Below, piece by piece: positions 12,358 through 58,826 of a stretch of DNA of 64,000 nt. The notes beneath the pieces were generated by a model. It was not told where the DNA came from and made no database searches. It saw only the letters and a list, made by a program, of their open reading frames with translations. How positions within the stretch are numbered: the stretch's first letter is position 1; each line of letters starts with the position of its first letter. Origin of the DNA: Octopus vulgaris (Eukaryota); NCBI GenBank assembly GCA_951406725.2, contig OX597836.1, forward strand, positions 682,001 through 746,000, in the 5' to 3' direction. Made by a program: the position numbers and the translations under genes.

Positions 12358-12396
12358 AGTAGGTGAGGTTTCTGTACTGGTAAGGTTTTCTTCAGT
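12358..12396 (-). CDS. Candidate 39-nt phase-0 microexon (TEENLTSTETSPT)
   Basis: Minus strand: CTAAA branch-like motif, about 30-nt pyrimidine tract ending TCTTCTAG, exon ACTGAAGAAAACCTTACCAGTACAGAAACCTCACCTACT, donor GTATGT. No transcript evidence available. Confidence 0.6.
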
Positions 12397-12477
12397 CTAG
12401 AAGAGGAAGAAGAAAAAAAAGAACAAAAACATTTAGAAGAACACATCATCAGAACTAGAAGAAGAAAAAATGGAGAT

Positions 12478-12990
12478 GTATATATGCATATCTCTGTATA
12501 AGAGTACATACATACATACATATATCATTACATGCACACATATAAACGTATATATATATATATATATATATATATATACACACAAATATATATATATGAA
12601 CACACATATACACACATAAATATACATATATTGTTATACACATATGCATATATACATATGCACAAATATATATATATGTATGCATAAATACATATATATA
12701 GGCACAAATATACATACATGTATATACATAAATACACACACACACACACATATGTAAGTATACAGATATATATACATTTAAATTTATGTATATATGTATG
12801 TAGTATGTATATATATATATATATATATATATATATATATACACACACATAAATATAAATGTATATACATACATATACAAATAGCACATGTATACATAAA
12901 TATGCATACATACATACACACACATATAACAAGCATATCATTATATATGTATATGTGTGTGTATATACATATGTATACATGTATGCATAG
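12478..12990. repeat. Degenerate (TA)/(CA)/(TACA) microsatellite block
   Basis: Directly visible. Confidence 0.95.
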
Positions 12991-14409
12991 TGGTCCTGGG
13001 TTGTTAAGTCTGAACCAAAGAGCACCCTTATACACTGGGATAAAGAAATAATATCATTATTGGTTCAAAAATATATCGAAATTCCTGGAGGTAAGAGCAT
13101 CAGCGACTAGTTTTGAATACAAAAAACAATTGACTCATATTGCGCTGTTAGCCCTGTCCATGACCAGAAGTTGCATATATTTTTGATCTGAAAGGAACTA
13201 TATTCTTGTGCTTTTTTGGCTGGGGATGGAATATCTTTGTCAGTCTGCCTTTTTTTGGAAGTTACCTCCCTTGTCACCTGTTTACGTGCACTGCATTTTT
13301 TGGGGGGGAGTTATCTCCCTTGACATGTTCTGCATGCTTGCGGAATCTGGCTACATACACACATACACGCACTCTAACACACACACACACACACACACAC
13401 ATATGGCGACAGAGGAGACAAGACAGGGATGAGAAGCAGAGGGAGAAAATTTTGATGAGAAATAAAACATCGTCGATATTTCAGAGAAGAATATCTGGAA
13501 GAATATAACCTGGATAAAGAAAAGAATGAATGGAATGCTAAAATTGCAATTATCAGTAAACAATCTATGTGGAGCAAAAGAGTTGATTGCATAAGGAGCA
13601 TTTTAAGGTCTATGAGATGGGAGTCCAGATCATCGAACCGAATTTTCTCTCATGTATGCAGCAGGGGCTGTATACATGTTTTGGCATTAAATACTGCAAG
13701 TTTCATCATATCACAGTCTCTTTTACTTTTCTGTTTTGTTTTTTGTTTTCTTTTGCTATGCAGGGCTTTCATCTCTTGACATTTATGAATGCTCTGAATT
13801 TTTCCATGATTTTTCTGCTAACCTCAAATGCTCCTATTATTATTTTCTTTTACCTGACAGATGTAGCTTGCAAGATTTGTTGTATGCCATTTTGTGATGT
13901 GATTGTAAAATCTCTGCTTGAAGGATGCTTTGATTACTCTAATATATCATGTTAGGTTTGCGTTCATAGATTTAAATTTTACCTCATAGATGATGGCTGA
14001 GGTGTTTCATAAATCATTCAGTAGGTGTTCTATAAAGTTCTTGCATGAATAAACATACAGACTCAACAATTTGGATGGGTTTGTGTGAAACAGTTGTTTC
14101 TTATCTCAAGTATATTTACCTATTGAATAATTTTCTTGTGGAAAAGGCCAGTCTATAAAATTGTGGAAGATCTTACAAGTGTTAGACCTAACGAAAAGTG
14201 AAAAGGTATCAGACATGGTAAAGAAAATTATTTTTCTTGAAAACAGGTGAAAATAGAAAGTGACAAGGATGATAATTCCCTACTCCCAACTCAGAAATGT
14301 AGATACTTTCAAAATAAATATCTGTGTTTATGTGTGTGCCACTGTGCTAATGCATACAGTATATAATGTGCAAATGCATACATTATATATATATATATAT
14401 GTATATATA

Positions 14410-55088: not shown

Positions 55089-56309
55089 ATTTACATACAC
55101 CCTCCTGCATATCATCATCATCATCATCATCATCTAATGTCAAGTTTCCAGGCTTGATATGGGCTGATTGGTTTGACAAGATTTGATGAGTTGGTGAATG
55201 ATATCATATTCCAATGTTTACTTTGGCACATGATTTGTATGGGTTTGTATGCACCAGTGAACATTGCTTTGCAACTTGCAAAGTGGAGGGCCTAAAGTGA
55301 TCCTTGTAACTGAAGAAGATTGGAAGAAAGTATTGGGGATAATTTTAGGTGGACAGATGAGGGCTGCTGCAATAGGATGGGAGAGTAGTAGAGTTGTCAT
55401 TAAGTGTATAGGGGGAGTATAGTAGGGAACAGTGGAGAGGGAAGGGATTATTGATAAGGGTTATTTTGAAAATGATGGGAATAAAGTTGAAAGGTGTTGT
55501 GTCAATTCTGCTTGCGTGTGTTTGTGTGTGTGTGTGTGTGTAAGGTGAGGTCTAGTGCTACCCAATATAAATGTTGAGTAAGGATAGAAGGGAAAGGGAA
55601 CAGGAAGGGAGAAATAGATTATGGAGGCAAGAAATCCTGAAAGCCATTGAAAGAAAGAGGGATGTGGGGGAGAAATTGTTGGGATATGCCAGAAATACAG
55701 TGAATGAGTGCAGTGAGGAGAGATTGAAGGACACATTGAAGGCTAGGAGGAAGTGAAATATCAAAAAGAAATGCCAGGAAAGTTTCCAAGATGGAGAGGC
55801 AACAGAGAAGATATAGAAAGAGAGAGGGGAAGGAAAAGCAGTGAGGGATTGCAGAAAGTGCAGTGAGGGAAGAAAAAGCTAGAGGGTATCCAAAAGCCAT
55901 AAGGACAGGTAGTGAGATGATAGTAAGGGGTGGTGTTGGATGCCAATAAAGGTAACTCATGTGAGAATGTGCCTGAGTGATAAAGGTAAGGGAATTATGG
56001 AAAGTGGATGTGTAAGATCGTGGGATGATAAAGTGAGCTTGGCAAAGAGTGAGTGTGTGTGTGTGTGTGTGTGTGTGTGTGTGTGTGTGTGTGTGTGTAT
56101 GTGTGCGTGTGTGTGTGTGTGTATGTGTGTGTGGGTGTGTGTGTGTGTTAGATTGGAAAGAAAGTGATGTCACAATCATTTTGATCATACTTTTTCATCA
56201 TTTACTGTAAAACAAGAATTAATTTTTACATTCTAATATTTTATTTGTTTCTTTGCAGATTACTTTATACCATAATAATCAAATTCATGTTCATTCTTTT
56301 TAAAACGAG

Positions 56310-57290
56310 TTTAGATCAGACCCATATCAGACACTGCATGTTTTATGAATTTAAAAGGACCTCTTTAGTAATGGAAGCAGCAAGAAATATGCCTTATGTC
56401 TAAAGAAATGAAGCTTTAAGTGTCCAGACATAGTTTGGCTATTTCACTCAAGAAATTTTTCACTTGTAAACTCCCCCTAATCCAGATGACCATGTTCTGT
56501 CAATATAAACTTCTGAAAACCAAGTTGAGGAGAATCCAAAGCAAAATATTGAGAATTAGTGAAACAGTTCAATTCAAGTTAAACTTTGGTTATAAAACTC
56601 CATCTTGAATTTGGTGAAATATCTCAACTTGGTCATTTGGTCTCTAAGCATTTAACTACTTCTCAGCTTAATGAAAATGTTGCCCTCTGCTCATCATCGA
56701 AGAGTAGACTTGCTACCAAACCTTTCCAGGGTACAATTATCACAAGTGATGAAAAGAGGGCTCCTTATAATCATATCCAGTGAAAATAACAATGGTTGGA
56801 ATCCATTGAGAGGAATCCCTCTCTAAACACCTGACTAAAGTTATACTCTGTGTTTGGTGGGACATAAAAGATGTCATCTATCATAAAATGATAAACCAAA
56901 ATGAAACAATGTGGAGACTTATTGTCATCATTTAGAAGCATTGTACAAAAAAGTATCCACCATTGGTCAACCATAAAGGGATGTTGCTCTTATGTGGTAA
57001 TGAAAGACTACATGATGCTCAAGTCAATCAGGACAAGATTATGGAACCAGATATGGAAGTTTTGTTTCATCTTCCTTACTCTTCTGACCTTCTTTTATCT
57101 GACTGTCATCTTTTTAGAGCATTGCAATATTACTGAGAGGGAAAACAATTTATTCATTATAAGGAGGTAAATATGATAGTGAGTGTTTCTTTGCTGGGAA
57201 CCTGAAGAATTTTAAGCCCAGTGAATCATCAATTTGCCAAACAGATCAGATTATGTTATCAATAATGAAAGGCAATATCTTAATTAGATA
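56310..57290 (+). mobile_element. Older mariner transposase relic
   Basis: HIRHCMFYEF, GHLVSKHLT (WVPHEL-like), IITSDEK, VILCVWWDIKDVIY and HLPYSSDLLLSDCHLFRALQ. Confidence 0.8.
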
Positions 57291-58793
57291 AATCAATTAA
57301 GACCAAAGAAACATTTGTTTCCTTTCCATCTTGAAATGCACCTTCTGAGTGCTGGGCCTCGTGGAGGGAATGACAAATGACCAAGAGCTTTGGCAATTTG
57401 CTGTGCTTGAGAAGAAAATCCCCATCAAGCCAAGTGAAATCATAGTCATGATAGACATTGGTGCCATGCAAACCGACATATCTTGGTCTCTTGCCACTAC
57501 TCTCTGCATCACATACATTTCTGTTGCAGTTTTGCCATCTCAGTCATATTGCCTTGACTATTCATTTCTGTCTCAGAATACAAGTACTATCTCTCATTCC
57601 TTGGTTACCCGTCTCTCTGATCACTATCATTCTGGCCTCTGTTACTCATGCTTCTCATTCTGAATGCAGGTGGGTGAGTGAGCGGAAGCAGAGTCATGAT
57701 GAAGCCATAACTACACTGTTAGTGCTGGTAGCACAAGAAAAATGCCCCCTTTGCACATTGTAAAATAGTTGATGTTAGGTAGAACATCCAGCCACAGAGA
57801 GCAAATGAAAATGTAATGTGAGATGAGGTCTGGATCTGTCTAGGTGAGTAGATCTGTCCTACCCATGACTGGACAGACATAAAATGATGATGATGATGTT
57901 GATATACATATACAAATACATGGGAAAAAATTTTAAATATGCATGTGTGCGTGCACAAACACACACACACTGGTAATGAAACATGTAAGTACATGCAAAG
58001 GGTATATAATTTATGGTAACCTAATCTCATGGATGCATGCTTACAGATTCACCCTTTACATTTTGACTTTTCCACTGACAAGGAACATTACTATGATGCA
58101 TGCTACAGTCTGCTTGGCTGACAAAAAGTTCTCTTCCTGATTTGCAACATTAACAACATTATTGTGAATTGAATGTTTACAACAATCATTAGGTTATGTA
58201 CATTTTTTAAAGCCTCAAACTGCTTGGCTCTTTATAGGCTCCACTCCAATTTCACACTGGATTATTTTGAAAGGTGAATTTACAGTTAATATTAAAAAAC
58301 AAAAATCTTGAAGAATATGTAAACATGAAAATTTGGTTACTCTGTAGCTTGATTTTGTCTTAGGTTACTCAAGTAACAACAATAACTTCCATCAGAAGCA
58401 CAACAACAAATATAAGCACAAATACCACCATTGCCATAACATCAACTGCTGCCATGATCACAATCATAACTACCACCACTGCAGCAACTAACACCATTAC
58501 CACAACAATATGGACAACAACACTAGTACCAACTACTATTACCACCACAAGAACAATAACTGCTACAGCTACAACAACAACAGTAAAAAATAGCAATAAA
58601 ATTCCCTGCTGATATCATCACTGGCACCGTTGCAGCTATTACAACAGCAACACCAACCGTTATTTCCTTACTACCACACCGATGAAGACAAAAATCCCCA
58701 TCAATACCATCCCAACAATCAGTACCAATACCTATACAATGACAACAACAGACAGTGACAACAACAACGATAATATAAATGTTTAGTTCATAC

Positions 58794-58826
58794 CTCAAAT
58801 TGACCTCTGGTTGTTAAGGTACTTAA
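58794..58826 (-). CDS. Candidate 33-nt phase-0 microexon (LSTLTTRGQFE)
   Basis: Minus strand TTTTCGTTTTCCCTTCCTTTCTTTCACATTTTTCAG|TTAAGTACCTTAACAACCAGAGGTCAATTTGAG|GTATGA. Only phase 0 lacks a stop. Confidence 0.55.

Follow-up and report, generated by a model that had tools for sequence, protein, structure and literature searches.

We analyzed a 64,000-nt stretch of the Octopus vulgaris genome (assembly GCA_951406725.2, contig OX597836.1, hereafter C23, positions 682001-746000; the window), together with 564 kb of the neighboring assembly. The whole window lies inside a 308,031-nt intron of the couch potato gene (cpo). Two short pieces within it, microexons A and B, are optional coding exons, and a 42-nt segment between them is likely a recursive-splicing site, one of five along the intron; we put the probability of this reading at about 80%. 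Each of the five sites consists of an acceptor directly followed by GTAAGT, with a further donor 38-49 nt on, and by analogy with Drosophila they would serve as ratchet points. The features in question are as follows (a slash marks a splice junction).

Window 1-64000, minus strand: part of the first coding intron of octopus cpo, 308,031 nt, which contains the whole window (tblastn and intron length).
C23:971252 (end of exon 1) and C23:663220 (start of the RRM1 exon), minus strand: borders of this intron, both outside the window.
Window 58794-58826, minus strand: microexon A, 33 nt, phase 0, LSTLTTRGQFE, a cassette coding exon (sequence and annotated isoforms).
Window 34961-35002, minus strand: candidate ratchet point RP1 with a 42-nt cryptic recursive-splicing exon (RS-exon), the top pair of the window and one of five like sites (sequence).
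Window 35003-35060, minus strand: 3' splice region of RP1, with a pyrimidine tract, TT at -6/-5 and about 57 nt without AG.
Window 12358-12396, minus strand: microexon B, 39 nt, phase 0, TEENLTSTETSPT, a cassette coding exon (sequence and annotated isoforms).
C23:896085, 856437, 807793, 767841 and 717002 (window 35002, RP1), minus strand: five ratchet-point candidates in the cpo intron (YAG/GTRAG scan).

The hidden host gene is octopus couch potato, a minus-strand member of the cpo/RBPMS/MEC-8 family. Annotated Octopus cpo proteins were aligned to the 564 kb with tblastn, and all cpo exons could be placed in order on the minus strand. A flanking exon is 100% identical to couch potato isoforms of Octopus sinensis and O. 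bimaculoides, and a scan of the neighboring assembly located the RRM1-start exon 18.8 kb past the low end of the window. The RRM_1 domain is found twice in the product, which has the conserved RRM1 start and the dimer-helix motif of the family, and among solved structures it is closest to RBPMS, RBPMS2 and MEC-8. An initial annotation, made from the letters of the window, had correctly placed the whole window inside one minus-strand gene with giant introns. It did not recognize the protein and proposed a micro-exon gene; the 420-amino acid product in fact comes mostly from exons of 51 nt to >200 nt. The position of the intron is old, because an acceptor is found directly before VRTLF in 23 of 46 metagenome loci (many of them redundant), and of the remaining loci 8 are spliced there and 15 do not extend over the position.

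The initial annotation had proposed three minus-strand pieces of 33, 42 and 39 nt, set 23.8 and 22.6 kb apart, and their coordinates, strand, lengths, spacing and phase-0 peptides are correct. Phase 0 is also the only phase open in all three, as had been stated: the 42-nt piece is open in phase 1 as well and B in phase 2, and A has no second open phase. The pieces had further been called the three best acceptor-donor pairs. We scored splice sites with generic matrices, built from textbook frequencies without fitting to octopus. Of the 208 pairs with a length of at most 60 nt, the 42-nt piece indeed comes first (32.5), whereas the other two rank sixth (21.0) and seventh (20.9). The best pairs in 30 block-shuffled windows score 20.4-30.3, and thus only the 42-nt site exceeds chance on score alone, while A and B are confirmed independently by annotated proteins.

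The beginning of the 42-nt piece had gone unremarked. At window position 35002 an acceptor AG directly adjoins a perfect donor, GTAAGT, and the cryptic exon ends at a second donor, CAG/GTAAGA. The acceptor is the best in the window, a branch-like TTAAT lies near -44 in the 3' splice region, and RP1 is single copy in the genome. It had been assumed that all three pieces form one translated chain; the 42-nt peptide, in either open phase, occurs in 0 of the 180 related proteins that we gathered. The segment is likewise found in 0 of 23 octopod isoform models, which are protein models rather than reads and cover part of their clusters (22 of the 46 members of five octopod clusters, plus P0007). 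A homolog search with the 42-nt frame gave no match, in itself weak evidence, and Pfam returned nothing for the open reading frame around RP1. We rejected a phase-1 reading of the piece, a string with four cysteines, because the flanking exons are in phase 0 and no relative carries the peptide. The anatomy of the 42-nt segment suggests that it is likely a recursive-splicing ratchet point with a cryptic exon.

RP1 belongs to a chain. A scan of the 564 kb for YAG/GTRAG yielded six sites with a strong acceptor on the minus strand and one on the plus strand. The five within the cpo intron all read YAG/GTAAGT and start GTAAGTT; RP1 and RP3 are identical over their first 13 nt. On the sense strand of the intron, GTAAGT follows 5 of 226 strong acceptors versus 0.083 expected, and on the antisense strand 0 of 178; with a stricter cut-off the sense-strand count is 4 of 104 acceptors versus 0.044 expected. 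TT is present at -6/-5 of the acceptor in all five sites. All five also have a downstream donor 38-49 nt from the site, compared with a rate of 4.6% for random 26-nt windows, and in every case the donor that would be rebuilt by splicing outscores the donor of the cryptic exon (12.0 versus 6.6-11.4, generic matrix). The cryptic exon shifts the frame or contains a stop in four of the five sites, RP1 being the only one that is both in frame and stop-free. Together, ratchet points and microexons split the intron into segments of 75, 40, 49, 40, 27, 24, 23 and 31 kb, and the density of sites is 1.6 per 100 kb. Every sequence feature of ratchet points that we tested was found here, namely the motif, a long intron with an excess on the sense strand, the TT and the downstream donor. 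Two other acceptor/GTAAG sites were seen: C23:604918 (minus) is located in a later cpo intron and has no downstream donor, and the antisense site C23:754480 (plus) has a donor 22 nt on.

In the mechanism that we propose, each candidate site would be recognized as a short exon, with its cryptic exon allowing for exon definition. As transcription passes, the acceptor of the site would be spliced to the upstream exon, which in the case of RP1 would be exon 1 or microexon A. Because exon 1 and microexon A both end in GAG, this join would rebuild a strong donor, GAG/GTAAGT. The rebuilt donor would then outcompete the cryptic exon's own donor and be spliced to the next acceptor, for RP1 that of B or of the RRM exon. 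No base of the site would be left in the mRNA, and the intron would be removed stepwise over the five sites.

Microexons A and B are translated, symmetric and independently skippable, and they are already annotated, not new. The initial annotation had predicted that the 33- and 39-nt pieces are symmetric and skippable in this frame, which is borne out by annotated octopod isoforms; its reservation that the exons could be untranslated does not hold for either. The predicted skip junction, joining A directly to B, is the commonest annotated form (11 of the 23 octopod isoform sequences). Three sequences contain A only, one contains B only and three contain neither; of the others, one has A behind another start and four have other first exons. 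Both microexons are no longer than 51 nt and frame-preserving, all four combinations are annotated, and both are conserved to Argonauta hians, which keeps them with few changes. Microexon A, single copy in the genome, is found in isoforms of O. sinensis, O. bimaculoides and Argonauta hians (one change), and microexon B, which has a strong acceptor and a weak donor, in isoforms of O. sinensis, O. bimaculoides and Argonauta (diverged). The N-glycosylation sequon and the hydrophobic block to which attention had been drawn carry no meaning for the cpo family, and the hydrophobic block falls in the likely skipped 42-nt segment. One further exon is joined to microexon A.

Window 59368-59397, minus strand: start exon of one annotated model (P0087, MHKCMDSKVV), spliced to A in 1 of the 23 octopod isoform sequences.

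Located 0.5 kb before A, it is either an alternative start or an annotation artefact. In the protein, the microexons insert 11, 13 or 24 residues, rich in Ser and Thr, immediately N-terminal to strand beta-1 of RRM1, ahead of the solved RRM boundary. The dimer interface of MEC-8 is mapped to helix 1 and a later loop in the account given in PMC5311487. As the inserts fall outside this interface, their effect on the protein is likely modulatory.

We searched the whole genome for the same architecture. A strict acceptor/GTAAGT pattern has 134 matches, versus 23 for the reversed pattern, 23 with permuted donor letters and 51 with an upstream purine run. Among the first 100 matches listed, which cover contigs 1-19 and include no cpo site, 15 neighboring pairs lie within 500 kb of each other where about 2.4 are expected; all 15 are on the same strand, as are 13 of 13 when a cluster of duplicated sequence is left aside. 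We compared 50 matches (30 from the top of the list and 20 chosen because they cluster) with 20 of the 23 controls and found more pyrimidine outside the pattern in the matches (p 0.001). A second donor giving a 36-54-nt exon is present 30 times, versus 12 times at 116-134 nt. When 8 minisatellite rows are removed from each, the counts are 22 versus 4, and without the cpo sites 19 versus 4. A stricter pattern with two donors was judged too narrow, as it misses four of the five cpo sites. Same-strand clusters of ratchet-like sites are located at C8:21.4-22.3 Mb (+), C9:105.0-105.6 Mb (+), C13:4.47-4.81 Mb (+), C12:1.27-1.38 Mb (-) and C6:97.1-97.3 Mb (-), and these are probably other giant introns. 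A minisatellite at C5:65,397,900-65,398,600 (minus) consists of units of about 41 nt with an acceptor/donor junction in each, giving at least 8 overlapping matches.

Several observations weigh against recursive splicing at these sites. The case for their use is built on sequence anatomy and on absence from protein models. The score cut-offs and the 30-55-nt window for the downstream donor were set after the sites had been seen (the RP4 acceptor scores 9.4 and the RP3 donor 6.6), and nothing comparable is found in the first segment of the intron, 75 kb long. Genome-wide, the short cryptic exon is no general feature: a donor at 25-60 nt is present in only 12 of 50 candidates, compared with 17 of 150 in other bins (p 0.04) and 1 of 20 in controls (p 0.09), and the stricter two-donor pattern gives 9 matches versus 4 for its control, with 3 of the 9 in tandem repeats. 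In two other loci that we inspected, 200 and 150 kb in length, we found only the two sites for which each had been picked, 82 and 110 kb apart, and neither yielded a host exon. At RP1 itself some inclusion of the 42-nt exon is possible, because this exon keeps the frame, has no stop and ends at a donor that scores little below the rebuilt one (11.4 versus 12.0, generic matrix). With 22 of 46 cluster members and P0007 in the isoform sample, a rare annotated inclusion isoform could hide.

The same properties of RP1 speak for the alternative that fares best, in which the 42-nt piece is an expressed RS-exon of the Ubx m1/m2 type, that is, both a recursive site and a regulated coding microexon included in some cells. 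Three cephalopod-like transcripts (P0102, P0110 and P0111) are also in line with it, as they contain a 13-residue insert at the junction of exon 1 and the RRM that begins with VS and ends with Q, the pattern expected of an included RS-exon. This insert has no acceptor-flanked match in the 564 kb, and an extension of exon 1 at its 3' end would account for it equally well, as VS is also read from the donor of that exon; the DNA of the insert was not returned by our metagenome scan. A 5-residue match to the insert at window position 16714 has no acceptor and was dismissed as chance. Short inserts of their own are present at this junction in snails, crustaceans, ticks and thrips. The peptide of the 42-nt piece is absent from the isoform sequences and the relatives, the homolog search was empty (again weak evidence), and one in-frame, open site among five is about what chance would give. 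We consider an expressed RS-exon improbable.

A far less probable view treats all three pieces alike, as ordinary cassette microexons translated in one chain, and puts the GTAAGT at the start of the middle one down to coincidence. Two of the three pieces are indeed cassette microexons in the predicted frame, and the strongest splice sites of the window belong to the middle piece. However, four more sites in the intron have the same start, with segments that shift the frame or contain stops, and A is joined directly to B in annotated isoforms. Just as hard to sustain is the notion that the five sites are unused look-alikes, which arose by chance or from repeats or act as decoys that bind U1/U2AF and shield the intron from premature cleavage: the case for use is drawn from sequence and protein models, such units form a minisatellite in another part of the genome and the first 13 nt of RP1 and RP3 are identical, but the 60-fold strand-specific excess in the intron, the even spacing, the paired downstream donors, the single-copy nature of RP1 and the genome-wide excess and co-orientation of such sites all argue against it.

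Recursive splicing of the cpo intron remains our preferred reading, and it invites a broader one. Microexon A starts with TTAAGT, one base off the ratchet-point donor GTAAGT, and it may be an exonized former ratchet point. In flies, weakening of the rebuilt donor turns a cryptic exon into an included exon, as described in PMC8605326. One could speculate, and we regard it as rather unlikely when taken as a whole, that recursive splicing before cpo RRM1 is ancestral to protostomes, from fly to octopus, that RS-exons are a nursery of lineage-specific microexons, that A would be a ratchet point whose rebuilt donor was lost by one base, and that other cephalopods would include an intact RS-exon.

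Other features of the region were noted. The window contains a fragment of a long interspersed nuclear element-type retrotransposon at 31404-32572 (+), with an RVT_1 match in two overlapping frames, and a decayed piece related to it near 46,000-46,500. A TA-rich microsatellite of 1.2 kb (27989-29176) is the longest of many. Outside the window, two tandem exons inside RRM1, of 17 and 18 codons, are located at C23:647495 and 635588 (minus), and annotated isoforms use one, both or none of them. An alternative first exon, MVEENLPSAFW, lies at C23:679666, 2.3 kb past the low end of the window, and has a near match in another transcript.

Proof of recursive splicing exists for flies and vertebrates, and predictions from sequence for other insects and sea urchin; PMC2773006 describes an enrichment of ratchet sites in insects and sea urchin, from a set that includes no mollusc. 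In the literature that we searched, which extends to sources other than subscription journals, we found no report of recursive splicing in molluscs or other lophotrochozoans. What is new here is a likely five-site recursive-splicing chain in a lineage for which our searches found no described case, while the mechanism, the gene and both microexons were known. Cephalopods combine large genomes and very long introns with large nervous systems. The five-site chain, together with about a hundred strict sites in excess across the genome, suggests that giant introns are likely processed in these animals as they are in flies. Recursive splicing also occurs in fly cpo, so that the locus can serve to test directly whether individual recursive introns are ancient or have arisen repeatedly, and it also bears on whether cryptic RS-exons yield new microexons. 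Annotators should be cautious, as in an intron of this kind the tiny exon with the highest score may never reach the mRNA.

We compared the octopus locus to known systems. In schistosome micro-exon genes, the coding region consists mostly of symmetric microexons and the product is secreted. Octopus cpo resembles them in having symmetric short exons that are skipped in combinations, but it has two coding microexons in an ordinary-exon gene for a conserved RNA-binding protein. We thus rejected a gene of the schistosome type, as ordinary exons contribute most of the product, including two RRMs. The eMIC class of neural microexons spans 3-27 nt, and A and B are longer. They share with eMIC/SRRM4 microexons that they are short, symmetric, skippable and preceded by long AG-free zones, but no UGC (TGC in the DNA) is found in the 60 nt before A or B, while a UGC close to the 3' splice site marks eMIC/SRRM4-dependent exons in the description of PMC8797185. 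At the protein level, the product matches the RBPMS/couch potato/MEC-8 family, whose members form dimers and bind paired GCAC motifs according to PMC5311487, in its RRM1 sequence, in the two-RRM layout also seen in MEC-8 and in the phase-0 intron before VRTLF. The 11- and 13-residue inserts before RRM1 are specific to octopods, and the inserts of other lineages at the same junction are unrelated to them.

The vertebrate recursive-splice sites summarized in PMC8605326 and PMC8758631, nine of them fully suppressed and located in long introns, are similar to the octopus candidates in that they depend on exon definition and lie in very long introns of likely neural genes. Vertebrate large introns show no general enrichment in Table 2 of PMC2773006, whereas such sites are clearly in excess in the octopus genome, with five in a single intron. 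The closest match is to Drosophila ratchet points with cryptic RS-exons (Ubx, kuz, Bx, luna and cpo), as described in 10.1101/006163, PMC8605326 and PMC6110457. There, too, an acceptor is directly followed by GTAAGT and TT occupies -6/-5 (196 of 197 fly ratchet points; 10.1101/006163). Several sites are found per long first intron, and the cryptic exon is about 50 nt long, has the weaker donor, mostly introduces a frameshift or stop (PMC8605326) and is absent from the mRNA, or, on the octopus side, from protein models. Site densities are 1.6 per 100 kb in the octopus intron, 2.2 in fly and 0.54 in sea urchin, the latter two scored differently (PMC2773006). The fly orthologue, cpo, has two ratchet points in one intron, a match to octopus at the level of the gene. 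Unlike in fly, two ordinary cassette microexons are interleaved with the candidate sites in the octopus intron. The octopus case comes from a mollusc, and its scale is larger, with an intron of 308 kb compared with 11-133 kb for recursive introns in fly, and segments of 23-75 kb compared with a fly median of 16 kb.

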